Below, one piece after another: positions 2,752 through 15,515 of a stretch of 20,000 nt of DNA. Numbering within the stretch: the first letter of the stretch is position 1; each line of letters starts with the position of its first letter. The notes beneath the pieces are model-generated. The model was given only the letters and a program-made list of their open reading frames with translations. It ran no database searches and was not told the origin of the DNA. The position numbers and the translations under genes are program-made. The stretch is from the IMG/VR virus record IMGVR_UViG_3300043427_003288; one strand, 5' to 3'. This DNA is from an uncultured virus (IMG/VR IMGVR_UViG_3300043427_003288). Taxonomy: Duplodnaviria; Heunggongvirae; Uroviricota; Caudoviricetes.

Positions 2752-5163
2752 ATGAATAAAGTGCAAGACATTAACTTTACTCCTAGAGTTAAGAGAGCAT
2801 TGGATGTAGCCAAGCAGAGATGCTTGGAGAACAACTGGCATGAAATTACTGATGAATTTTTATTGCATGCTATTCTCTTTTCGGAGTCAATGATAGTAAA
2901 TCTTGCCTTTCAAAGCGTTAAAATTGAAATCAAAGATGTAGTACTTGCTCTTTCCAAGACTTTGCCCACTGGAAAGAAGAAAGTTAGCGAAAAAAATGTT
3001 AACTTTAGCTCGTCCGCTAAATCAATTATTGATAATTCGTATAAAATTTCTCAAGGCTTTAAGCAAAATTATACTGGAGTAGAGCATTTATTCTTATCGA
3101 TCCTTAGACATTCGCCTAGCGTTGCCAAATTCTTTAAGAAGCATGGTCTTGATATCGCATTTTTTGCTGATAAAGTAGAGAAGGAGTGCAAGCATTTATC
3201 CAATCCAGTAAAAAAGCCCATTGAATCCCAGTCTTCTAAATCTCAAGATTCGCTATCAGAGTTTTGTGAAGACTTTAATGAAAAAGCTTTGGCTGGAGAA
3301 TTTGACCATATCTCTTTTAGAGAAAAAGAAGTAGACCAACTTTCAGAAGTTCTGTGCCGTAAACAGAAAAGAAATCCAATTCTCATTGGTCATCCAGGCG
3401 TTGGCAAGAGCGCCGTTGTTGGACTTATCGCTAAAAAGATTATTAGCTGTCAATGCACAGAGTTTCTTCTCGACAAGAAGATTATCAGCGTTAATCTAAG
3501 CGCGCTTATTGCTGGAACAAAACTGAGAGGAGAATTTGAAGAGCGTTTGACTAAAGTAATGGAGCAAATAAAAAAAATTGGTAATGTTATTGTATTTATC
3601 GACGAGGTTCATAACTTAATAGGTCTTGGTAATGATGCTGGTTCAATGGATGGCGCCAATATCTTAAAGTCTTATCTTACTTGCGAAGATATGTCTTTTA
3701 TTGGAGCTACTACTGAAAAAGAATATGAGGCTTATTTTGCTAAAGATGCTGCGATGAATCGCCGCTTTGAACCCGTATTTATCAAAGAGCCCAATAAAGA
3801 ACAGACTCTCGATATCCTTAAGAACTTAAAGGGCTACTATGAATCATTTCATATGATTCTTTATCCAGATAGCGTTCTTGTAGATATTGTTAATGTATGT
3901 GACAAATATATCACAAGCAAATATTTTCCTGATAAGGCTATTGATCTAATGGATCAGGTTGGTGCGAAAGTTAAAATTAAAGCTTTCGCCCGCCCTCAAG
4001 AGATTAAAAACATGGAAAAGCTAATCTTGGAGTTTGAGAAGATTGCTCCAGACGATATCAAAGAAGAGCATCTCGATGACATCATCGAAGATTATCAAAA
4101 GAAATACGATGCTTGGGCAGAAGTAATAAAGAATAAAAAAGAAAAAGCGAAGACAAAAGACGTTTACCAAGCATTGTCTGACAAGATTGGTAAGGTCATT
4201 GATATGGAGTCTGAGAACTCTGGCATCAAGAACATTTACTCTAATCTTAAAAAGCATGTCTTTGGTCAAGATGATGCAGTAAAAAAGATATCAGACTGCA
4301 TCCTTCGTAGCTCTTTTGGTCTGGCAAAGAACTCGCGCCCACTTGGAAACTTCATGTTTATCGGACCAACAGGTTCTGGTAAAACACATTTAGCTAAGAC
4401 GCTAGCAAAAGAAGCGTTTGGCTCAGACTCTAATCTCTGCATTATCGATATGTCAGAGTTTATGGAAAGCCATGCGGTCTCTAAATTGATTGGCGCGCCT
4501 CCAGGTTATGTCGGCCATAAAGAGCCCAGCATATTCTTTACTCAGCTACAAAAGCACCCATCTACAGTTTTCCTATTCGACGAAATAGAAAAGGCTCATC
4601 CAGATGTAGTAAATATTTTGCTCCAAATCATGGACCGTGGAGAGCTTACTGACTCAGTAGGTAATAAGCTAAACTTTAAAAACTCTATTGTGATCATGAC
4701 TGGTAATGTTGGCTTTCAGATTAACGATAATAAAAGAATGGGTTTTGGAGCAGTATCTAACCCAAAGCCAACAAAGGATAGTATCATGGATAGCTTAAAG
4801 AAATTCTTTAGGCCAGAATTTTTAGCCAGACTAAATGAAGTCGTTATTTTTCAAGAACTTTCAACAGACAGTCTTGTCAAGGTAATCGAAACAGAACTAG
4901 ATTTTATTAAGACATCTTTAGCGAACAACGGAACAACGATTTCTTTCTCTTCAGAAATTATTGATTATGTTATACATAAGACAAAAGACTCTAATTCTGG
5001 GGCTAGAAAAGTAGTATTTTTTATAGAGAACGAACTAAAGACTAAAATAGTTGATGTTTTATCCACTGCTAAGTATAATCAAATTAAGGTCTCTATCAAA
5101 GATGGAGAAATACAAGTAGATGGAAAAACAAAAAAACTTCTTGCAGTACACGGTAAACAATAA
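2752..5163 (+). CDS. clpC: ClpC/ClpA-like Hsp100 AAA+ unfoldase, 803 aa
   Basis: Two Clp_N repeats (FTPRVKRALDVA; NYTGVEHLFLSIL). D1 has Walker A GHPGVGKS, Walker B FIDEVH and FPDKAIDLMD. The middle domain is short. D2 has GPTGSGKT, IDMSEF..KLIGAPPGYVG, LFDEIEKAHPDV, FRPEFL and an MGF ClpP-docking tripeptide. Confidence 0.9.
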   Translation: MNKVQDINFTPRVKRALDVAKQRCLENNWHEITDEFLLHAILFSESMIVNLAFQSVKIEIKDVVLALSKTLPTGKKKVSEKNVNFSSSAKSIIDNSYKISQGFKQNYTGVEHLFLSILRHSPSVAKFFKKHGLDIAFFADKVEKECKHLSNPVKKPIESQSSKSQDSLSEFCEDFNEKALAGEFDHISFREKEVDQLSEVLCRKQKRNPILIGHPGVGKSAVVGLIAKKIISCQCTEFLLDKKIISVNLSALIAGTKLRGEFEERLTKVMEQIKKIGNVIVFIDEVHNLIGLGNDAGSMDGANILKSYLTCEDMSFIGATTEKEYEAYFAKDAAMNRRFEPVFIKEPNKEQTLDILKNLKGYYESFHMILYPDSVLVDIVNVCDKYITSKYFPDKAIDLMDQVGAKVKIKAFARPQEIKNMEKLILEFEKIAPDDIKEEHLDDIIEDYQKKYDAWAEVIKNKKEKAKTKDVYQALSDKIGKVIDMESENSGIKNIYSNLKKHVFGQDDAVKKISDCILRSSFGLAKNSRPLGNFMFIGPTGSGKTHLAKTLAKEAFGSDSNLCIIDMSEFMESHAVSKLIGAPPGYVGHKEPSIFFTQLQKHPSTVFLFDEIEKAHPDVVNILLQIMDRGELTDSVGNKLNFKNSIVIMTGNVGFQINDNKRMGFGAVSNPKPTKDSIMDSLKKFFRPEFLARLNEVVIFQELSTDSLVKVIETELDFIKTSLANNGTTISFSSEIIDYVIHKTKDSNSGARKVVFFIENELKTKIVDVLSTAKYNQIKVSIKDGEIQVDGKTKKLLAVHGKQ

Positions 5164-6109
5164 GAAGCTTCTTCCTATAGAAGAAGAATTTTTATCGTCG
5201 ATATGCGGAAAGCTTGAATCTAAATTCAAATTTAAGATATCGAACATCTTAAAAGAAAACTCAAGCCCTCTTTATGATTGTTTTGCTCTAATTGCAGACA
5301 ATCGACCATTTTTTTTAAAAGTCAACGTGTCTCCAGACACGCCTAATTCTTGGGATGTTTTATCTCAAGAAAAACCTTCTTTTCATCCTTTAATAATAGA
5401 CTCCTCCTCCCCCGAAGAGGAGTTTAAATATATTTTTTTTGAATTGCCAAAAGGCGTGTTTGCAAACGATATTTCAAATTATATTTTAAGCCATAAGCTT
5501 AATTTGACTGACGCCTTTACGAGAGATTATAAAAAAATTCATTCTTGCAGCTTTTCTTCTGAAGACGAAACTGTCGCCATGTACAATTCTCTTCTTCCAA
5601 TAGAAGCGATGAGAATTTATAGAAAATATCCAATAGTCGATGTATTCTCAATTTTAAAAATACTTTTTGCTGAAACTTACAAAAAAAATCCAACGCATTG
5701 CAATTTTTGCCATTTCGATCTTTGCTTAGAAAATATTATATACACTGGTTCTGAATTTAAATTTATTAACTTTGAGTATTCGTGCAATGGCAATAGATAC
5801 TTAGATATTTGGTTAACAAAAACTCTTTTGAATTGTTCTGATGACACATTCAATAGATTCGTTGAAACTTATAATAAACATGAATTAGACTTGATATATA
5901 ATTACGAAGAATTGTCGAATTATTTTATTTTTGCCTATTTCAATTCAAAAATAATTTCTGAATACATGACATTTGGCCTTAGAGATCCTGTGAAATTAAA
6001 ATATTGGATTGGACAATCTTCTATATTTTATTCAAAAATTTCAGACAAACTTTATCTAGAAAAAAATATTGACAAATCAATAAGAGACTTTTACTATCTC
6101 TGGAAATAA
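5120..6109 (+). CDS. Choline/ethanolamine kinase or APH-like phosphotransferase-fold protein with an atypical Mg-binding motif, 329 aa
   Basis: FFLKV (ATP-binding Lys), Brenner motif FCHFDLCLENII, and FINFEYS at the position of the usual IDFEY. Overlaps the clp gene by 44 bp, so the start is uncertain. Confidence 0.7.
   Translation: MEKQKNFLQYTVNNKKLLPIEEEFLSSICGKLESKFKFKISNILKENSSPLYDCFALIADNRPFFLKVNVSPDTPNSWDVLSQEKPSFHPLIIDSSSPEEEFKYIFFELPKGVFANDISNYILSHKLNLTDAFTRDYKKIHSCSFSSEDETVAMYNSLLPIEAMRIYRKYPIVDVFSILKILFAETYKKNPTHCNFCHFDLCLENIIYTGSEFKFINFEYSCNGNRYLDIWLTKTLLNCSDDTFNRFVETYNKHELDLIYNYEELSNYFIFAYFNSKIISEYMTFGLRDPVKLKYWIGQSSIFYSKISDKLYLEKNIDKSIRDFYYLWK
6069..6097 (+). promoter_or_regulatory. 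Sigma70-type promoter embedded in the 3' end of the kinase gene
   Basis: TTGACA (6069-6074), 17-bp spacer, TACTAT (6092-6097), with an A-tract upstream and AAGGA just before the ATG at 6118. Confidence 0.8.
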
Positions 6110-6420: not shown

Positions 6421-7029
6421 ATGAAGTTTTTATCTTATTTATTTTTTTGGGTGGCTTTCTCATTATCAGTTTTAGCCCAAGATAAAATTGTTTACAAGCA
6501 AACCAACCACACAATTTCAGTTGCAGATGAAGATGCTATGATCACTTTTGCCGATGTAAAATCTAAAGATGTTACTGTATACGTAGCTCCTCCGACTGGG
6601 AGAATCCAATTCAAGACTGGTGATAAAATTTATTTTTCAGCGTTAACGGACAAAACGATAAAAATATCTGCAATAAAAGGAGCGGTTTTAATTAGCCCAG
6701 ATAATTCATTTACTGTATCAGGCTACGGATCTCAATGGCAGTTATTGCATTTAGGCAAAAATATATGGCTGGCTTCTGGTGATTTATACAGCTTGGAAGT
6801 AGATGCCTATCTGAACCAAGATATCACGCTTAGAGCCAGAGTTGATTCGCAAGCCACAGGACCGTTTACATTCGTTTGGAGAAAGAATCAAACTATCATA
6901 CCTAATGCAATAGGACCAACTTTAAAGTTAGAAAGACTGAAACTCTCAGACGCTGGAATATATACCGTTACCGTATCCAATCCTGCTGGGGTTGTATCTA
7001 GTGAAGGTATGCAGCTTATCGTTCGTTGA
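6421..7029 (+). CDS. Signal-peptide protein with a tail-fibre-like beta domain and a C-terminal Ig (I-set-like) domain, 202 aa
   Basis: N-terminus MKFLSYLFFWVAFSLSVLA|Q looks like a Sec/SPI signal. The C-terminus GPFTFVWRKN..LKLERLKLSDAGIYTVTVSNPAG has the Ig Trp and DxGxY motifs. Confidence 0.75.
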   Translation: MKFLSYLFFWVAFSLSVLAQDKIVYKQTNHTISVADEDAMITFADVKSKDVTVYVAPPTGRIQFKTGDKIYFSALTDKTIKISAIKGAVLISPDNSFTVSGYGSQWQLLHLGKNIWLASGDLYSLEVDAYLNQDITLRARVDSQATGPFTFVWRKNQTIIPNAIGPTLKLERLKLSDAGIYTVTVSNPAGVVSSEGMQLIVR

Positions 7030-7326: not shown

Positions 7327-7779
7327 ATGCGCCTTAATTTTTATAAACCAAATAGATCGAATACAGGTACAGCCGTATCCTTTAATACGGTAGACAAGAA
7401 AGAAGAAAAGGGTGTAGATCTTTATGTCAGCTTTATTAAGCAAGCTGGCTGGAACGATCAGACAAAGAAAGGTTCTTTTAGCGAGAATGCAAAGAACCCA
7501 GAGAAGACCGCTTCTCTAAAGTTTAATGAAGCCGAGGCTGCATCCATTATCCGAGCAGTCCGTCTTGGGTCAAAGTTCTCGACGGTTCATGCTTTTCAAG
7601 GCTCCACTACATCTATTATGTTTGGGCCTTACCAAAAGAAAAATGGCGACGCTGCTCTTTCTTTTTCTATCAAGAAAGGCGAACAGTCATTCCTTATTGG
7701 CTTTGAGCTTGGAGAAGGCGAGCTTATCGCCCAATACTTAGAGAACTATCTCCGTAAGTCATTCGATCTTTCTGAATGA
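7327..7779 (+). CDS. Putative Whirly/PC4-fold single-stranded nucleic-acid-binding protein, 150 aa
   Basis: Two beta-sheet-plus-helix units ending in LKFNEAEAASII and IGFELGEGELIAQYL, similar by eye to plant Whirly domains. ATGA-coupled to the next gene. Confidence 0.55.
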   Translation: MRLNFYKPNRSNTGTAVSFNTVDKKEEKGVDLYVSFIKQAGWNDQTKKGSFSENAKNPEKTASLKFNEAEAASIIRAVRLGSKFSTVHAFQGSTTSIMFGPYQKKNGDAALSFSIKKGEQSFLIGFELGEGELIAQYLENYLRKSFDLSE

Positions 7780-9677
7780 AAAAGACTGTAGTTTTCCATA
7801 GCAATCATAGCCGAATGTTTACAGGATTCGGCAAGAACGCTAAAAATGTTCTGAGATATCTTTATCGAACTGGCAAATACAACATCATTGAGTTTGCCAA
7901 TTCAAAGACTAAGAACGCCGAAGACCTAAAGACGCTTCCTTGGAAGGCTTTTGGCACTCTTCCAGAACAGGGAAAGCTACAGGCACTTTCTTCTGATCAA
8001 ACAAAGATCAGAATGGCTAGCTATGGAGTAATTGAAATTGACGAATTAATTAAAGAAGCGAAGCCTGATTTTTATATCGGCGTAGAAGATATCTGGGCTT
8101 TATCGCCTTTAGTTGATAAAAAGTGGTGGAACGAAAACTGCATGATTTGGACCACACTTGATTCTTTACCAATCTATCCAGACGCTCTTAAAATTATCCC
8201 CAAGGTAAAGCATTACTATGCTTGGAGCGCATTTGTCGAAAAAGAAGTTAAAAGGCTCGGACATCCAGAAGGCTCAATCAAAACACTGAGAGGAGCAACA
8301 GAAACTTCTTGCTTTTTCCGACTCAAAGACGATGAGAGAAAACTCATCAGAAAAGAATTCGGCCTTACTGATGAATTCGTTGTTGGATTTGTGTTTAGAA
8401 ATCAATTGAGAAAAAGCGTCCCAAACTTAATGCAAGGCTTTAAGATTTTTAAAGATAAAAATCCAAAACTAAAGCCAAAACTTCTATTGCATACTCACTG
8501 GTCAGAAGGCTGGGATATTCAAAGGCTTATCAAAGATAATGGATTAGAAAATTCAGATATTTTGACTACGTATTTTTGTAAAAAATGCAAACAATATGAA
8601 GTTAAATCTTTTCGCGGCCAAAAAATTCCATGCAGATTTTGCGATGGGAAAGATACGGTAGAAACTACAAATATTCATAACGGAGTAAGCGAAGAGCAGC
8701 TTAATGAAGTTTATAATTTGATGGATGTTTATTGCCATCCATTTACAAGCGGAGGTCAGGAGATTCCAGTAACAGAAGCCAAACTTACTGAATTAATCAC
8801 CTTAGTCACAAACTATTCTTGCGGAGAAGATTTCTGCACAGAGGAAAGCGGCGGCATGCCTCTTTCTTGGAAACCGTATTTTGAACCTGGTACAAATTTT
8901 ATTAAAGCGACTACGCTACCAGAATCTATTGCGGACAAGTTGGAAAGAGCGGCTTATACTCCGATCTCCAAACGAAATGAGATGGGCAAAAAGGCAAGGC
9001 AATTTGTACTAGATAATCTTTCTGCTGAAGTTATCGGGAAACAAATAGAAAAAATTATAGACGAAGCGCCCTCTGTTTCGTGGAACTACTCTTCGTCTTT
9101 CGAGCTTAGAAATCCTAATTATGATCCACCAGAATCAAGCGATGACGTTAGTTGGGTAATTGACCTGTACAAAAACATTTTAAAAACAAATGTTGACGCA
9201 GAAGATAATGGCGTCAAAAGCTGGCTCAATCAAATAAAAAATGGAATCTCTAAAGAAAATATTTTAAATTATTTTAAGCAGACCGCTATCAAAGAGAATC
9301 AAGAAAATACTAGAGTTGAGCTTTCGGATCTCTTGGATAAAGATGATAAAGGAAGAAGAATTTTGTTCGCTATTCCGCAAAGCGCAGGAGATGTTTTTCT
9401 CTGCACTTCATTGCTTCCATCAATCAAAAAGACTTATCCAAACCATAACATATACTTTTCAACAAAGCCAGAATTTTTTGAAATCCTTGACTGCAATCCA
9501 TACATTCATAAAAAGATAGTCTTCAGTCCGTTTATGGAAAACCTTTTGACTATGGAGGGCCATGCTGGGGGAGAGGGGTATTTTGACATCGCTTTCCTTC
9601 CGCACGTGGGAACTCAAAAAGTTTTCGACTATCAGCATAACGGCAAGGATATTATTCAATTCGACACGAAAGCTTAA
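7776..9677 (+). CDS. Multidomain glycosyltransferase: GT4-like GT-B with a CxxC..CxxC insert, a DUF4214-like helical domain and the N-terminal lobe of a GT9, 633 aa
   Basis: TGFG N-terminal loop, VFRNQLRK, YNLMDVYCHPFTSGGQEIPVTEA; CKKC..CRFC; WVIDLYKNIL..DNGVKSWLNQIKNGISKENILNYF; RILFAIPQSAGDVFLCTSLLPSIKKTYP..EILDCNPYI. Confidence 0.85.
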   Translation: MKKTVVFHSNHSRMFTGFGKNAKNVLRYLYRTGKYNIIEFANSKTKNAEDLKTLPWKAFGTLPEQGKLQALSSDQTKIRMASYGVIEIDELIKEAKPDFYIGVEDIWALSPLVDKKWWNENCMIWTTLDSLPIYPDALKIIPKVKHYYAWSAFVEKEVKRLGHPEGSIKTLRGATETSCFFRLKDDERKLIRKEFGLTDEFVVGFVFRNQLRKSVPNLMQGFKIFKDKNPKLKPKLLLHTHWSEGWDIQRLIKDNGLENSDILTTYFCKKCKQYEVKSFRGQKIPCRFCDGKDTVETTNIHNGVSEEQLNEVYNLMDVYCHPFTSGGQEIPVTEAKLTELITLVTNYSCGEDFCTEESGGMPLSWKPYFEPGTNFIKATTLPESIADKLERAAYTPISKRNEMGKKARQFVLDNLSAEVIGKQIEKIIDEAPSVSWNYSSSFELRNPNYDPPESSDDVSWVIDLYKNILKTNVDAEDNGVKSWLNQIKNGISKENILNYFKQTAIKENQENTRVELSDLLDKDDKGRRILFAIPQSAGDVFLCTSLLPSIKKTYPNHNIYFSTKPEFFEILDCNPYIHKKIVFSPFMENLLTMEGHAGGEGYFDIAFLPHVGTQKVFDYQHNGKDIIQFDTKA

Positions 9678-9678
9678 T

Positions 9679-10881
9679 ATGCATATTTTAGATAGATACG
9701 CTTTGTCCTGTGGGGTAAAAATTGATAAACCGTTTATAAACTTGCATTATTATCCAATGACTTTGGATAAATATGTTGCATTTCAAACCAGCGGAAAAGG
9801 CAATTCCCGCCAATATGATTACTGGCACAAGGCATTTTCTTTTATAAAGGAATACGCTCCAGAATACAAGATAGTTCATGTCGGCGTCCCTTCCGACCAG
9901 TCAGTTTATGGGGTTGATCTTGATTTGAGAGGCAAAACTTCAATCAATCAGTTAGCCTACGTTATTAAAAATTCATCCATTTATCTTGGCGTAGATAGCC
10001 TTTCTGCTCATTTAGCCAGTGCTAATAATAAAAAAATTGTTGCGCTTTACTCTTATTGCTACGCTCAAAATTGTAGTCCAGTTTGGGGAGATAAAAAAGA
10101 CCATTCGCTTTTAGAAGTTGATTGGTCTAAGCATGGCAAGCCTTCGTTTTCATTAAACGAAACTAATAAAAAAATTAATAAAATCAATCCAGAAATTATT
10201 GCCAAGGCCGTTTTGGACCAACTCCAAGTCCCCAATGATCTTGATAAAATCCAGACTATTTATATTGGAAGCTCATTTCATAATCCAACTATTGAAGTGA
10301 TTCCTGATGATGGCCCGATTCCAGTCATTATCAAAGATAAAGTTTGCAATGTAAGATTGGACTATCTTTTTAACGAAAAAAAGCTTTTGCAACTAGCTTC
10401 AGTTGCTTTTTTGAATATCATTTCAAATAAAATGGTCGATTTGAACATTTTAAGTATGATCAAATCAAAAGTTTCTGGGATAACCCTAATAGTCGATGAG
10501 TCTTTTGATTTAATTTACCTTAAACAATTAAGAGATCTTGGAATTAAATTAGCCTTAACCGCGCCAAACGACGCCAATTGGGGAGCTTTAGCAGAAAAGT
10601 TTTTTGACTTTGGGCTAGAAAAAGAAGAGGTCGTTACGAAAGAAAGCGTGAAAGATTCAGATAAATTGGACGAACAGTGGATTTTTTCATCTGAAAAAAT
10701 TATAATTTCAAATGGGAAAATCTTTGCCAGCAAAGCAAGTTGGAAAAACAACCAACCAAAGCTTGACAAGTTCTCAAAAGTCGTAGACACTCCTGACTTC
10801 TGGGAAGAATCAGATCACTTTCACATATTAAAAGATGAACGACCAAACTGGAACAGCGCAAAAGCCACACTCTCTCCGTGA
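9679..10881 (+). CDS. Protein with the C-terminal (nucleotide-sugar-binding) lobe of a GT9 heptosyltransferase-like enzyme plus an unknown C-terminal domain, about 400 aa
   Basis: DLRGKTSINQLAYVIKNSSIYLGVDSLSAHLASANNKKIVALY is the GT9 C-lobe signature. Start moved from 9562 to the ATG at 9679, 1 nt after the upstream stop (TAAtATG). Confidence 0.8.
   Translation: MHILDRYALSCGVKIDKPFINLHYYPMTLDKYVAFQTSGKGNSRQYDYWHKAFSFIKEYAPEYKIVHVGVPSDQSVYGVDLDLRGKTSINQLAYVIKNSSIYLGVDSLSAHLASANNKKIVALYSYCYAQNCSPVWGDKKDHSLLEVDWSKHGKPSFSLNETNKKINKINPEIIAKAVLDQLQVPNDLDKIQTIYIGSSFHNPTIEVIPDDGPIPVIIKDKVCNVRLDYLFNEKKLLQLASVAFLNIISNKMVDLNILSMIKSKVSGITLIVDESFDLIYLKQLRDLGIKLALTAPNDANWGALAEKFFDFGLEKEEVVTKESVKDSDKLDEQWIFSSEKIIISNGKIFASKASWKNNQPKLDKFSKVVDTPDFWEESDHFHILKDERPNWNSAKATLSP
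10763..10791 (+). promoter_or_regulatory. Possible internal sigma70-type promoter upstream of the annealase-like gene
   Basis: TTGACA, 17-bp spacer, GACACT, ending 43 nt before the ATG at 10835. The -10 is imperfect. Confidence 0.35.
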
Positions 10882-11608
10882 CGAGAAGGGTTTAATTAAG
10901 AACGTTAATTATATTTTTAAAAAGGACGGGACTGTGGATTGGCGCGCAATGGTCAATCCAGCCCACCTTTATCCAAATAAGGACTGGTTTGCCCGTAGAA
11001 ATATGGCAGTACCGGAAACTTCTGACGGTCTCCGTGATGACCAGCTTCTGATTAAGTTGGCTGGAATCAAAGAGGTTGCAAAGCTTCGCGGATTCAACAG
11101 AGTAAGCTTTAACTTTCCTAAGCTCGACAATGATTATGTTGTCGCAACTTGCCAAGTCGATTGGATTGAGAATTTTGAAACATCGTTCGACGAGAATGCA
11201 TTCAATGTCATTTCGTCAATGGACGTAGCAAATGCTACGTTTGAAAATACCGATGGATTTGGTCAAAAGTTTTTAGAGACCATTGCTGCCAATCGAGCTT
11301 TTGTTCGTACAGTTCGTAATTATCTTGGCATCCATATTGTTGGTGAAGATGAGATCGCCAAGGGAAATGGAGCCAAAATGTCTGGTGCCAGCGAAGGCTC
11401 TGCGGATGTTTCGCCTCAAGGTATTCTTTCCAAGAAGTTTGCCGACTCTTCTCATTGCCACTCTGGAGCGGAATGGCCCGACTTCAAGGAATGGCTTAGA
11501 GAGCTTTGGAAGTCAGAGACCTATAGAAATGAAGAAGCCAAGAACTGGAAGTCTTGGAGCGATATTCCTGCAAAAGATGCGCGCACTCTGCTAAAGTTTG
11601 TAAAATAA
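10835..11608 (+). CDS. Putative Rad52/Sak-like single-strand annealing protein, 257 aa
   Basis: LLIKLAGIKEVA helix, three beta strands (VVATCQVDW..), then ANATFEN..FLETIAANRAFVRTVRNYLGIHIVGEDEI, resembling the A-x-x-R-A-x-x-R closing helix of Rad52-superfamily annealases. A linker and a small Trp-rich C-terminal domain follow. Confidence 0.55.
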   Translation: MNDQTGTAQKPHSLRDEKGLIKNVNYIFKKDGTVDWRAMVNPAHLYPNKDWFARRNMAVPETSDGLRDDQLLIKLAGIKEVAKLRGFNRVSFNFPKLDNDYVVATCQVDWIENFETSFDENAFNVISSMDVANATFENTDGFGQKFLETIAANRAFVRTVRNYLGIHIVGEDEIAKGNGAKMSGASEGSADVSPQGILSKKFADSSHCHSGAEWPDFKEWLRELWKSETYRNEEAKNWKSWSDIPAKDARTLLKFVK

Positions 11609-11612
11609 AATT

Positions 11613-12086
11613 ATGACTAAAAGAATTACCAGCGCTACAGAACTTCGCCAAGCATTAGAAATAATGAAAAAAGGCGAAAGGCTGGCTAAAGTCATCAGTC
11701 ATCAAAAACATATCGCAGGAGACTGGAATCTCGATCATCTGCGAGATCAGCTAATTCAGCTTCTTTTGGTATTCAAACAGAATGCAGTAATTTTTATTAA
11801 TTATGAAAAAGACAAGCAGCCAGTCTCTCTTTTCGCTGGAATGATCACAGAAGACTGGGCTTGTGGAAAGCTTGGTCTCAATGAAATTGTGTGGATTACT
11901 GTTGACAAGTCTCAGCTTGGTGGCGTAAAAGTCCTTCAAGCAGTAGAGAACCTGATTAAAGAATTAAATATAGATTTTCTATCTTGCAATTATATGTGCA
12001 ACGGAGGAGATCCAAGAGTTCAAGGTTTTTATTTAAATAATGGGTTCAGACTGGATACACTTACTTTTGTAAAGAATTACAAATAA
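11613..12086 (+). CDS. GNAT-fold acetyltransferase-like protein, 157 aa
   Basis: EIVWIT..QLGGVKVLQAVENLIKELNIDFL (degenerate motif A) and VQGFYLNNGF (motif B, FYxxxGF). Confidence 0.7.
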   Translation: MTKRITSATELRQALEIMKKGERLAKVISHQKHIAGDWNLDHLRDQLIQLLLVFKQNAVIFINYEKDKQPVSLFAGMITEDWACGKLGLNEIVWITVDKSQLGGVKVLQAVENLIKELNIDFLSCNYMCNGGDPRVQGFYLNNGFRLDTLTFVKNYK

Positions 12087-12156: not shown

Positions 12157-14457
12157 ATGAAAAAAACAATGTCTGTTAAGAAGAGAAGCGGAGAAGTCGT
12201 AAAGTTCGATGCTGACAAGATTAATAAAGTTTTAGCTTGGGCTTGCGAAGACATTCCAGATACCTCTTTTGAGGAAGTTGCGATGAACGCTAACCTTTCA
12301 TTCTTTGACGGTATTTCTTCTAAGGATATCCACAATACCCTTATTGAAGCTGCGGCAGGATTGATATCCGAGGAAAAGCCTCAGTATCAATACGTTGCGT
12401 CTAAGCTTCTTAACTTTCAGCTTAGAAAGGAAGTTTGGGGAGGCAAGAATGCCCCAAAGCTCATTGATTTTGTCAAGGAGAATATCAAGCTAAAGGTTTA
12501 TGATCCAGATATTTTAAATTGGTATGACGAGCGCGAGTTCCATAAGCTCGATGAGTTCTTGCGCCATAATAATGATTTTAATTTCACATATGCTGGCATC
12601 AAGCAGCTTTGTGAAAAATATCTGGTTCAGAACAGAACCACAAAGAAAATCTACGAGACTCCGCAGTTTGCCTATATGCTTATTGCTATGACGTTCTTTA
12701 AAAATTACAAGAACGACAGAATCAATTACATTAAAAAGGCTTATAATTATTTCAGTCAGCACAAGATCAATCTGCCAACCCCAATTATGGCGGGCGTTCG
12801 CACAACACTGAAGTCTTATGCTTCTTGCGCTCTATTTACAGTAGACGATGCTCTTAGTTCGATCTTTGCAAACAATAGTGCGATTGGATTTGCCACAGGT
12901 AATCGTTACGGTATTGGCATCAATGCTAGCCGCATTCGCGCTGTCAACAGCCCAGTAAAGGGCGGAATGGTCAGCCATACCGGCCCAGTACCATTCTTGA
13001 AGATGTTTGAATCTACCGTAAAAAGTTGCCATCAAAATGGCATTCGCGGAGGCTCTGCAACAGTTAATGTTGCTTGGTTCCATCATGATATCGAAGACAT
13101 CCTTGTTCTGAAGAACAATGCTGGTACAGACGATAATCGTGTTCGCAAGTTAGATTATTGCATTGGTTTTGATCGCGTGTTCTATGACCGCGCAATGTCT
13201 AACAAGAATGTTACTCTGTTTTCATATCACGAAGTTCCTGAGCTTTGGAACAATTTTGGGATGCCAGAGTTTAAAGAGCTTTACGAGGCCGCAGAGAATA
13301 ACCCTAAAATCAAGTTCAAAAAGATTGTAAACGCCAGAGAGCTTCTGTTCCTCTTCTCAAAGGAGCGGGTAGAGACTGGACGTATTTACGCAATGAACGT
13401 AGATCATGCAAACTCTCATGGCGCTTGGCTAGAACAAGTTGACACATCTAATCTTTGCCTTGAAGTAAACCATCCCTTAAAAGCGATCAGCGATGTAAAT
13501 GATCCAAATGGTGAAATCGGCGTCTGCATTCTTTCTGCCGTTAATCTGGTAGAGGTTTCTGAGAATGAAATGGAATCAGTTTGTGACGTTATTGTAAGAA
13601 TGCTTGATGAACTTATTGACCATCAAGATTATTTCGTTCCTGCTGCGGCAAATTTTGCCAAGAACCGCCGCAGTCTTGGAGTTGGCGTTACAAATCTTGC
13701 CGCCTACTTTGCTAAGAATAAAATCAAATACTTTGATAAGCAGGCTCCAAATAAGGCGGCTGCGATAATGGAGCTTGTTAGCTACAATCTTATCAAGGCT
13801 TCTATTGGCTTGGCAAAAGAAAAAGGCACTTGCGCTAAATTTAATCTCACTAAATATTCAAAAGGCATTCTTCCTATTGATAACTATTGCAAGAGCGTTG
13901 ATGAGTTTGTAAAGGAAAAGCTGCATTGTGATTGGGAGGCTCTTCGTCAAGACATCAAACAATATGGCATGCGACATAGTACTCTTACAGCTTTGATGCC
14001 AGTTGAGTCTAGCTCTGTTATTCAATCGTCTACCAATGGTATCGAACCTCCACGGTCTCTTATCTCTTTTAAGAGATCAAAGGCAGGAGTAATGCCAGTC
14101 GCTGTTCCCGCCATCAATAAGTATAAGGATGATTACACTCTTGCTTTTGAGATGCCGAGTAACGAAGGCTATCTCAAGGTAGTTGCCGCTCTCCAGAAGT
14201 TTGTTGACATGAGTATCTCAACAAATCTTTACTATAACACTACTCGTTATCCAAACAAGATTCCGCCTCAGACAGAGCTTGTAAAGGACATCCTTCTTGC
14301 TTATAAGTACGGGATCAAGAACCTTTACTATACAAATACATTTGACGGAGATACTCAGACAGTACTGCACACCAAAAAAGAAGTAGAGCAACCACAACCA
14401 CAATCAGAACCGCAAGAAGAAACCGAAGGATGTGCCGGTGGAGCTTGCACCTTATAA
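12157..14457 (+). CDS. nrdA: Ribonucleotide reductase class Ia alpha subunit with an ATP cone, 766 aa
   Basis: VKKRSG ATP cone, PTPIMAG, ASCAL, QNGIRGG, SNLCLE (thiyl Cys), GVCILSA, LMPVESSS, KNLYY and C-terminal CAGGAC. Confidence 0.98.
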   Translation: MKKTMSVKKRSGEVVKFDADKINKVLAWACEDIPDTSFEEVAMNANLSFFDGISSKDIHNTLIEAAAGLISEEKPQYQYVASKLLNFQLRKEVWGGKNAPKLIDFVKENIKLKVYDPDILNWYDEREFHKLDEFLRHNNDFNFTYAGIKQLCEKYLVQNRTTKKIYETPQFAYMLIAMTFFKNYKNDRINYIKKAYNYFSQHKINLPTPIMAGVRTTLKSYASCALFTVDDALSSIFANNSAIGFATGNRYGIGINASRIRAVNSPVKGGMVSHTGPVPFLKMFESTVKSCHQNGIRGGSATVNVAWFHHDIEDILVLKNNAGTDDNRVRKLDYCIGFDRVFYDRAMSNKNVTLFSYHEVPELWNNFGMPEFKELYEAAENNPKIKFKKIVNARELLFLFSKERVETGRIYAMNVDHANSHGAWLEQVDTSNLCLEVNHPLKAISDVNDPNGEIGVCILSAVNLVEVSENEMESVCDVIVRMLDELIDHQDYFVPAAANFAKNRRSLGVGVTNLAAYFAKNKIKYFDKQAPNKAAAIMELVSYNLIKASIGLAKEKGTCAKFNLTKYSKGILPIDNYCKSVDEFVKEKLHCDWEALRQDIKQYGMRHSTLTALMPVESSSVIQSSTNGIEPPRSLISFKRSKAGVMPVAVPAINKYKDDYTLAFEMPSNEGYLKVVAALQKFVDMSISTNLYYNTTRYPNKIPPQTELVKDILLAYKYGIKNLYYTNTFDGDTQTVLHTKKEVEQPQPQSEPQEETEGCAGGACTL

Positions 14458-14459
14458 CA

Positions 14460-15515
14460 ATGAAAACTGTCCTTAATACCGTTAATTTAGATTCGCTCAA
14501 GCAGCCGCTTTTCCTTGGAGAAGATTTGGCTATTCAGCGATATGATCGTCTTAAGTATCCAAAGTTTTATGAACTGTACGACCAGCAAATTAATTTTTTC
14601 TGGCGTCCACAGGAAGTAAATCTGACAAAGGATGCTGCTGATTACAAGACACTGTCTCCAGAAGAAAAGTTTGTTTTCGACAGCAATTTGCGATTCCAAA
14701 CAATGACAGACTCAATGCTGTCTCGCAGCATTAATTCGCTATCAGATTACGTAAGCAATCCAGAGCTTGAAATCTGCATGAATGTTTGGTCTTTCTTTGA
14801 GACGGTTCATAGCAACAGCTATACGTACATTCTCCAGAATGTTCACCCAGATGCCACAAAATTCTTTGATTCAATCTTAGAAGACAAGGAGATTGTAAAG
14901 AGGGCTCAAGCTATCTCCAGCCGTTATGATGCCCTACTTAATACAAAGAGCGATGATCCAAAACAGCAGATATTTGAAGCTCTTCTTGCGACTCAGATAA
15001 CCGAAGGGGTAACCTTTTACGTTTCTTTTGCCTGCTCTTTCTATTTTGGCTATCGCGGAAAGATGGAGGGGAATGCCAAGATCATTAACCTCATCTCCCG
15101 TGACGAAAATCTTCACGTTGCTATCACTCAGAATCTTCTTAAAATTCTTCGTGATCAGCCCAAGGAAGGCTTTCAAGACATTGTTAAAAAGAATGAAGAC
15201 AAAATTTATGAAGCTTATAGAATGGCTGTTGAATCTGAAAAGGAATGGGCTGATTATCTTTTCTCAAAGGGCAGTCTAATTGGCCTCACTGCTGATTCCC
15301 TAAAGCGTTATGTCGAATGGCTTGCTGACAATAGACTCCATTCCATGGGTTATAAAAAGATTTATAATGTAAAGGGCAATCCACTTGCTGGCTGGCTAGA
15401 CAGCTTCTATGACAGCAAAAAGATCCAAGTTGCTCCTCAAGAGACAGAAATATCTTCTTATGTCAAAGGCGTTGACAATAAGATTGACGAATCTGTCTTT
15501 GATATGAAGTTTTAA
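14460..15515 (+). CDS. nrdB: Ribonucleotide reductase class Ia beta subunit, about 351 aa
   Basis: FFWRPQE, QTMTDS, ETVHSNSY (radical Tyr), EGVTFYVSF, RDENLH, QVAPQETEISSY. Start moved from 14430 to the ATG at 14460, 2 nt after the nrdA stop. Confidence 0.97.
   Translation: MKTVLNTVNLDSLKQPLFLGEDLAIQRYDRLKYPKFYELYDQQINFFWRPQEVNLTKDAADYKTLSPEEKFVFDSNLRFQTMTDSMLSRSINSLSDYVSNPELEICMNVWSFFETVHSNSYTYILQNVHPDATKFFDSILEDKEIVKRAQAISSRYDALLNTKSDDPKQQIFEALLATQITEGVTFYVSFACSFYFGYRGKMEGNAKIINLISRDENLHVAITQNLLKILRDQPKEGFQDIVKKNEDKIYEAYRMAVESEKEWADYLFSKGSLIGLTADSLKRYVEWLADNRLHSMGYKKIYNVKGNPLAGWLDSFYDSKKIQVAPQETEISSYVKGVDNKIDESVFDMKF

Follow-up and report, generated by a model that had tools for sequence, protein, structure and literature searches.

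To our knowledge, natural splits of glycosyltransferases of the GT-B fold are textbook rarities, essentially Alg14/Alg13 and EpsE/EpsF. In these systems, which are of the GT1/GT28 kind and of which EpsE/EpsF is bacterial and archaeal, two neighbouring genes supply the N-terminal lobe (N-lobe) and the C-terminal lobe (C-lobe) of one GT-B enzyme as separate chains, with the active site in between. PMC8993221 infers a single split in this family, followed by several re-fusions, and a similar mix of split and fused forms is found among the relatives of the genes described here. Enzymes of family GT9 such as WaaC, WaaF and WaaQ (structures 1psw and 3tov) and TibC (4rap) are, in contrast, one chain of ~320–400 amino acids (aa). 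We analysed a 20,000-nucleotide (nt) stretch of DNA (the window) from an uncultured virus of the Caudoviricetes (IMG/VR record IMGVR_UViG_3300043427_003288), in which two adjacent open reading frames (ORFs) on the + strand, gene 1 (7776..9677, 633 aa) and gene 2 (9679..10881, 400 aa), each encode part of a GT9-like enzyme. The gene pair probably reflects a conserved gene fission, the products of which would form a GT9-like heterodimer with a GT4 enzyme attached to it, and as in Alg14/Alg13 and EpsE/EpsF the active site is predicted to lie between the two chains. Our search of open-access papers and preprints found no described split GT9, phage heptosyltransferase or multi-domain phage architecture of this kind.

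Domains encoded by the two genes

Gene 1 encodes a GT4-like GT-B domain, then a DUF4214 domain, then ~110 aa similar to the beginning of a GT9 N-lobe, with a mean column identity of 82% across 16 relatives. The GT4-like domain appears to be a complete GT-B domain (residues ~1–430; 7776..9065, + strand). Its residues 2–430 match phrog_2170, annotated as 'glycosyltransferase', at E 5.4e-15, while the score against PF00534 (Glycos_transf_1), 24.6 bits, is just below the cut-off of 26.4. With the AlphaFold2 (AF2) model of gene 1, for which the mean predicted local distance difference test (pLDDT) is only 61, Foldseek returned GT4-type structures at the top of the list (3oy2 at E 1e-10, PimB' 3oka and MshA 3c4q). 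Inserted in this domain is a four-cysteine motif (C268, C271, C286 and C289; 8577-8645) that is invariant in the 16 relatives and looks like a zinc ribbon, and a comparable CxxC...CxxC segment is seen in the single-chain relatives described below. The DUF4214 helical domain follows at residues 456–503 (9141..9284, + strand; PF13946, 24.3 bits against a cut-off of 23.2), where the model places helices at 457–510.

The last part of gene 1, residues 524–633 (9345..9674, + strand), corresponds to a GT9-like N-lobe lacking its last helix. Residues 524–579 resemble positions 1–52 of TIGR02201, with E 0.005 in a search of the last 133 aa alone and E 0.047 for the whole protein, and full-length NCBIfam heptosyltransferase models match gene 1 at model positions 1–58. 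Among PDB entries, a 16-sequence profile of the gene 1 tail matches 3tov best, a GT9 structure (residues 9–65, at only E 0.067). The model shows a beta-alpha-beta-alpha-beta-alpha pattern at residues 528–593. Within this half-lobe lies an SAGD loop (residues 536–539; 9381-9392, + strand), of which G538 and D539, together with the following V540, are invariant in 16/16 sequences. Across 21 more diverse sequences, at least 90% retain the Asp of the loop, which aligns to 'LGDV' of 3tov; we take it to be the catalytic Asp of the 'GD' in the loop after beta1 of the GT9 N-lobe, a role described for HepI. The first-pass annotation had assigned the gene 1 tail to a GT9 N-lobe, an assignment that is weak from the tail alone and becomes firm because of the single-chain relatives. 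It had also proposed comparing each half with PF01075, and here only gene 2 gives a match; the scan of gene 1 gave none.

Gene 2 encodes the last helix of the N-lobe, then a GT9 C-lobe, and then an alpha/beta C-terminal domain of no assigned family. Its start at 9679 is backed by the invariant M1 and H2 and by in-frame stops 3–23 codons upstream in relatives other than locus L001. The N-terminal helix and linker (residues 1–19; 9679..9735, + strand) begin with the invariant MHxLxRYALSCGV. This helix is poorly placed in the monomer model (pLDDT 45–52), and it aligns to 'HLVETYANMC' of the fused protein P0180, directly after the part of P0180 that matches gene 1. The C-lobe spans residues 19–185 (9733..10233, + strand). 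Residues 81–144 match PF01075 positions 166–228 of 247 with 32.4 bits (cut-off 22), and the PF01075 positions matched in gene 2 and the fused forms are 103–232 only. Residues 83–137 match the heptosyltransferase III model TIGR02201 at positions 245–298 (E 3.2e-7). For the AF2 model of gene 2 (mean pLDDT 68.9), the best solved match is Escherichia coli WaaF 1psw (Foldseek E 2.4e-5). Aligned with VIA-align, model residues 19–184 superpose on 1psw chain residues 161–345 with Z 13.8 and a root mean square deviation (rmsd) of 2.9 Å over 146 aligned residues, and the next best match is the protein heptosyltransferase TibC 4rap (Z 12.5, rmsd 3.2, 150 aligned). A donor-site-like loop, GVDSLSAHLA (residues 104–113), has G104, D106, S107, H111 and A113 invariant, and the homologous loop of P0180 aligns to 'NDSGPMHV' of 3tov.

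Because the WaaF match starts at gene 2 residue 19 and the helix directly follows the N-half in the fused relatives, the cut lies inside the N-lobe, before its last helix. The first-pass annotation had read the start of gene 2 as the C-lobe and had placed the split at the linker between the lobes; the C-lobe is indeed present, but the first ~18 residues are the last helix of the N-lobe, and the break is thus not at the linker. With respect to function, the scores fall far short of the NCBIfam equivalog cut-offs (29.7 against 170.2 bits), and therefore no Waa or lipopolysaccharide (LPS) function can be transferred to the pair and it is no Waa orthologue. Sequence searches of the PDB gave no match at E≤1 with the profile of the whole of gene 2, and with residues 1–200 only PnsB1 7wff at E 0.27.

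The C-terminal domain of gene 2 (residues 195–400; 10261..10878, + strand) is modelled as an alpha/beta core, confidently folded at residues 200–310 (pLDDT about 72–94), followed by a low-confidence tail, the last 90 residues being poorly predicted. A Pfam scan of 17 members gave no family for the window copy at E≤10; seven weak families appeared, each in 1–2 of the 17 members (best E 0.038), and a PDB sequence search of the domain returned no match. The sole structural lead is PqqE 6c8v, with Z 8.9, near background, and atlas feature matches reach 0.78–0.82, lead level only. We considered whether 'CN[VI]R' in this domain could be a decayed CxxxCxxC motif, and rejected the idea, its only backing being the PqqE Z of 8.9; hhalign to the radical-SAM part of the relative P0217 gave a probability of 0.3%.

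The junction and its single-chain relatives

Gene 1 and gene 2 are joined by TAAtATG (9675..9681, + strand), in which a single base separates the gene 1 stop from the gene 2 start and gene 2 lies in the next frame, as the first-pass annotation had described. A one-base change here would join the two frames. It might thus be supposed that an indel introduced in sequencing or assembly, or else a mutation that recently inactivated the gene, has broken what is truly one fused ORF, especially as the +1 frame in the window is open for 43 codons upstream of the gene 2 ATG. Errors or mutations do occur in these contigs, as one in-frame stop in a gene 1 homologue illustrates: in locus L011 (L011:2098-3996), codon 365 is a stop that replaces the invariant Trp365, and L017 carries the same protein without the stop, so that the L011 stop is either a sequencing error or a broken copy. 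On the other hand, a scan of IMG/VR gave 56 related loci with gene 2 identities of 57–100%, of which 8 begin inside or just before gene 2, and in all 48 loci with a visible junction (48/48) the genes are separate and the break is at the same point, down to 57% gene 2 identity. The first-pass annotation had posed exactly this question of homologous phage loci, and the answer is affirmative throughout.

A word-based search with gene 1 residues 505–633 as query, covering lengths of 348–1108 aa, points the same way. It returned 83 homologues, all of 419–655 aa and thus all split (83/83), and none near the ~1030 aa expected for a fusion; the 49 listed homologues with less than 66% identity all end 0–20 residues past the motif HNGKDxIxFDL. 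Assemblies of runs X2, X5 and X7, from three other studies, span 9675–9681 without an indel, and in that of X7 the junction reads TAAcATG, with the spacer base alone changed; for run X11 the junction is outside the coverage. Among relatives, the nonsynonymous rate (dN) is 0.02–0.24 with the synonymous rate (dS) saturated, alike for the N-half, the GT9 part of gene 2 and the GT4 part, and omega is 0.02–0.09 in the four computable pairs. Both halves are thus under strong purifying selection. Judged from these sequence comparisons, the split is natural and conserved, not an artefact, and we regard an indel or a recent inactivation as scarcely credible.

A second way to obtain one chain from this locus is programmed ribosomal frameshifting or stop bypass, which would yield a fused GT4–DUF4214–GT9 protein, whether predominantly or in small amounts. 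Such a mechanism would fit two adjacent genes that lie in different frames and follow the order of the fold, and it would fit the existence of fused proteins in relatives. Against it, there is no conserved slippery sequence, and the junction sequences differ between groups of loci: TAAnATG is found in 23 of the 48 and TAAnnATG in one, and in the remaining 24 stop and start overlap by 14 nt. Relative to gene 1, gene 2 is in frame +1 at 47 loci and in frame +2 at the remaining one. The stretch that the first-pass annotation had noted as stop-free from 9550, ahead of the gene 2 ATG, is real in the window and its twin (43 codons) and is not conserved elsewhere, being 23 codons long in 13 loci and 3–10 in 34. 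Gene 2, moreover, starts with an invariant Met-His, which fits independent initiation. With three junction types, two relative frames and no conserved upstream open frame, frameshifting or bypass is very improbable, and we reject both it and the indel, which had been put forward together as one alternative to a true split.

We searched for forms in which the halves are joined, using a hidden Markov model (HMM) of the N-half built from 21 sequences against 1.84 billion cluster representatives (50% identity), which gave 896 hits at E≤1e-3. Tail lengths were classified for the best 150 of these. Among them, 127 end no more than 25 residues past the domain, a further argument against a recent break, and 31 of the 127 are at least 560 aa long; the remainder comprise seven with tails of 26–60 residues, eight partial profile matches and eight that continue for more than 60 residues. 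Pfam scans covered seven of these eight continuing proteins, the exception being P0184, a fragment of 175 aa; in every one of the seven, PF01075 scores above its cut-off in the region immediately following the N-half. P0180 (855 aa) and P0195 (836 aa) have the arrangement GT4–DUF4214–GT9, with DUF4214 passing the scan only in P0180. The fused form carries an additional GT2 domain in P0202, P0198 and P0218 and a radical-SAM domain in P0217. In P0131, the N-half is followed by a gene 2-like protein that retains gene 2's own C-terminal domain. P0198 (1564 aa) also contains an intein (Pfam Intein_splicing and Hint) inside its GT4-like domain, at residues ~76–450.

On these single chains, the matches to the two genes adjoin each other. 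Gene 1 residues 2–633 align to P0180 4–668 (E 8e-59) and gene 2 residues 2–138 to P0180 662–798 (E 3e-22), and gene 2 residues 2–356 align to P0131 159–516 with 33% identity (E 9e-52), the N-half of P0131 lying at 33–146. At the point where the window lineage has its stop and start, the fused proteins have a short loop, 'HNGHGTH'. The GT9 nature of the joined region is visible in P0180 itself, of which residues 559–801 align in one piece to records annotated as LPS heptosyltransferase III (~25% identity, E 5e-7), and of which the GT9 region matches 3tov in two colinear stretches (chain residues 16–76 and 247–308, E 0.0027). Such an alignment of both genes on single chains is Rosetta-stone evidence that the halves belong together. 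It had been anticipated that finding homologues as single fused ORFs would speak against a split enzyme; fused forms do exist, among distant relatives only, and they speak for, rather than against, two halves of one enzyme.

A tree of the N-half (made with a quick method on 116 columns) is poorly resolved, with 54 of 118 inner branches open; it needs at least two state changes and gives neither a firm count nor a firm direction of fission and fusion events. Rows with an HMM match starting after position 8 or ending before 100 (which dropped P0195 and P0217), tails of 26–60 aa and P0184 were left out of this tree. We return to its bearing on the fission below.

The modelled complex and the proposed enzyme

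We modelled gene 1 residues 520–633 together with gene 2 residues 1–200, each with a 16-row alignment. The complex scored 0.87 (runs of 0.80, 0.87 and 0.90), and the best of three controls scored 0.00. Among 157 solved complexes, 116 attain this mark, as do 2 among 215 mismatched pairs. At least 83% of contacts are common to the runs, and the partner pLDDT is 85 or higher. Confident contacts form between residues 531–553, 567–576 and 607–613 of gene 1 and residues 3–21, 88–90, 107–115 and 135–136 of gene 2. In the model, the gene 2 helix packs on the gene 1 half-lobe and the SAGD loop is opposite the DSLSAHLA loop, in a geometry like that of a GT-B cleft. The modelling that the first-pass annotation had proposed for the pair thus supports binding of the two chains. 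In this model, two Rossmann-like lobes in N-to-C order around one cleft, as expected of GT9, would be present in trans only. The gene pair does not encode GT9 as a single polypeptide and is a split variant, not a standard member, of the family. The idea that one GT9 forms in trans beside a GT4 site and a further domain, first raised from the sequence alone, is supported by the conserved split, the fused homologues, the purifying selection and the complex model with its controls.

Several points weigh against a heterodimeric GT9-like enzyme produced by fission. By itself, the gene 1 N-half is marginally GT9-like by sequence (E 0.005 and 0.067), and residues 510–633 are folded with low confidence in the gene 1 monomer model (pLDDT 25–58). 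The reconstituted N-lobe is short, ~125 aa compared with roughly 160 in WaaF. A few distant members substitute the D of SAGD (one with E) or alter the residues preceding it. The complex may have passed from the model's memory of solved single-chain GT9 structures, because the inputs are halves of a fold for which such structures exist. Gene 2 is without the metal-finger-like Cys cluster found after the C-lobe of the fused forms, and the poor resolution of the N-half tree adds to these concerns. The Cys-rich segment in question, C-x3-C-x4-C-...-C, occurs after the C-lobe in P0180, P0195, P0202 and P0217; the matching part of gene 2 is residues 154–167 (~10135-10180), a low-confidence loop in the model. 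TibC-type heptosyltransferases have an iron-binding Cys finger.

Some of these points would also fit halves that are no longer an active GT9. The gene 1 tail would then be a docking or adaptor remnant, or gene 2 would work with its own C-terminal domain or only bind a nucleotide sugar, and the pair would be a scaffold or regulator of the GT4 enzyme. The reduced N-lobe with its low-confidence fold and the loss of the Cys cluster are in keeping with this, as is the second confidently folded Rossmann-like domain of gene 2 at 200–310. However, SAGD and DSxSxHLA are invariant in the 16-sequence alignments and face each other in the complex model, and selection is strong on both parts. We therefore consider an inactive GT9 unlikely.

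For the preferred heterodimeric GT9-like enzyme, the following scheme can be proposed. The ancestral form would have been one chain consisting of a GT4-like GT-B enzyme, DUF4214 and a complete GT9-like GT-B enzyme, sometimes with GT2 or radical-SAM domains, a form still present in distant relatives. In the lineage of the window, the cut in this chain would have fallen within the GT9 N-lobe, immediately ahead of the last helix. Gene 1 would have retained the GT4 enzyme, DUF4214 and a truncated N-lobe with the SAGD loop carrying the putative catalytic base, and gene 2 would provide the missing helix, the C-lobe with its presumed nucleotide-sugar-binding DSxSxHLA and the further domain. Both genes would be translated from one message, possibly in a coupled manner, as stop and start touch or overlap; no Shine-Dalgarno-like motif is visible upstream of the gene 2 ATG. 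The products would assemble, through the modelled interface, as a heterodimer with a GT9 active site, presumably catalytic, between the chains. One particle would then have two glycosyltransferase sites that may work in succession on the same acceptor. The donor could be ADP-heptose-like or another nucleoside diphosphate (NDP) sugar. As to the acceptor, our guess is a glycoconjugate or protein of the phage or host surface, and with less likelihood DNA.

A more ambitious version holds that the fission is adaptive, the donor-binding C-lobe and its further domain being an exchangeable module that docks by its donated helix on the half-lobe linked to the GT4 enzyme and swaps donor or target specificity between phages, a naturally 'mix and match' GT-B, and that the two-site machine builds a heptose-containing glycan on an unusual acceptor such as virion proteins or phage DNA. 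The locus lies in a replication and nucleotide module, next to a kinase of the aminoglycoside phosphotransferase (APH) fold, and a preprint (bioRxiv 10.1101/2023.12.21.572611) reports a gene cluster for heptosyl-5-hydroxymethylcytosine with a similar kinase-adjacent setting. A thymidylate-synthase-like family was not found in related records G002 and G003, and C5-methyltransferase, Tet/JBP and cytidylyltransferase families were not found in G001–G003; since the completeness of these records does not exceed 46% and the control for Tet/JBP matched nowhere, nothing can be read into these absences. We regard this adaptive, glycan-building version as a speculative and rather improbable one.

Genomic setting and comparison with known systems

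From the ORF list and family scans, the window has a phage-like gene content. Upstream of the gene pair are a DnaE-type polymerase (177-2744), a ClpB-like AAA+ protein (2752-5163), a 329-aa protein of the APH/choline-kinase fold (5120-6109), an Ig-domain protein (6421-7029) and a 150-aa ORF of unassigned function (7327..7779, + strand), which is syntenic in relatives and whose stop overlaps the start of gene 1. Downstream, two syntenic ORFs of 257 and 157 aa (10835..12086, + strand) lie between gene 2 and nrdA, followed by the genes of a class I ribonucleotide reductase (12157-15515) and, on the opposite strand, a J-type tail protein. Scans of the neighbouring ORFs of 150, 257, 157, 73 and 71 aa against Pfam, PHROG and NCBIfam gave no family. 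Synteny around the pair is kept throughout the relatives, in the order ClpB-like gene, kinase-like gene, small ORFs, 150-aa ORF, gene 1, gene 2, 257-aa ORF, 157-aa ORF and nrdA.

Several neighbours deserve comment. The ClpB/ClpA-type double AAA+ protein is full-length (phrog_4871, E 2e-194) and is unusual phage cargo. The kinase-like gene overlaps its end by 44 bases, and its product scores 25.1 bits against Choline_kinase, below the cut-off, with weak matches to thiamine kinase, CotS and APH(3') models. This protein is syntenic and fast-diverging, with 42–72% identity in relatives in which nrdA is 81–98% identical, and its substrate might be a sugar. The Ig-domain protein has a hydrophobic N-terminus and matches Hoc-like and tail PHROGs. 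Of the 56 related loci, many of which stop short of the region, just 9 gave a tblastn match to it, and its gene looks like a variable cassette within a conserved block. The 157-aa ORF (11613-12086) is 100% identical in some relatives and ~71% identical in others, and this pattern suggests local mosaicism, since the ~71% identity lies between flanking genes that are 96–98% identical.

The related records G002 and G003 (67 kb each) are estimated by CheckV to be 46% complete, from which genomes of roughly 145 kb would be expected in this phage group. The G002 contig has a second GT9-like ORF elsewhere in the genome (L060:1231-2178, - strand), a single chain of 315 aa that scores 19.5 bits against PF01075, below the cut-off. 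Near-identical sequence is present in freshwater, marine and crustacean-associated metagenome runs, and no RNA run was listed among the sequencing runs that contain it. Among isolated phages, blastn of 7700–11000 and tblastn of gene 1 and gene 2 gave no match in 50,697 phage records, and the ClpB-like query found there only matches of ~35% identity, to unrelated records.

If the split enzyme is real, it would be a second, independent natural split of a GT-B enzyme, and in another family, GT9. Its novel aspects would be the cut inside the N-lobe, the helix donated in trans and the joining of each half to other domains. Because split and one-piece forms are both available, the locus could serve as a test system for how GT-B lobes recognize each other, whether a composite active site can withstand being split, and why a virus keeps the split. 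It would also mark an abundant, uncharacterised multi-domain glycosyltransferase module in large aquatic phages, the product of which could be a virion, host-surface or DNA glycan.

Compared with the known systems, the pair shares with WaaC, WaaF, WaaQ and TibC the fold and the motifs, its 'GD' and 'DSxxxH' loops aligning to 3tov, and its best NCBIfam model is heptosyltransferase III; it differs from them in being two chains with a shorter N-lobe. In the fused GT4–DUF4214–GT9 proteins the domains come in the same order, and homology extends over all of gene 1 and over the GT9 part of gene 2, but those of the P0180 type are one chain, with the Cys-rich segment and with other C-terminal domains in place of gene 2 residues 195–400. 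That separate halves could assemble is plausible because engineered GT-B half-enzymes do so: according to Bretagne et al. 2024 (PMC10937113), N- and C-domains that are produced separately can come together as an active dimer. Those constructs are artificial and of GT1 type, whereas the pair in the window is a natural, conserved and GT9-like split. With respect to Alg14/Alg13, neither gene has an Alg13, Alg14 or GT28 Pfam family (at E≤0.01), and gene 1 has instead PF00534 and PF13946 and gene 2 PF01075; because the Pfam families differ, the pair is a functional analogue, not a member, of the Alg14/Alg13 family. Unlike in Alg14/Alg13, the N-half is fused to a whole GT4 enzyme and DUF4214 and the C-half to a further domain, in a phage context. 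Alg13 contacts Alg14 through its C-terminal helix; in the gene pair, in contrast, the cut precedes the last helix of the N-lobe, and it is the C-lobe protein that donates this helix to its partner.

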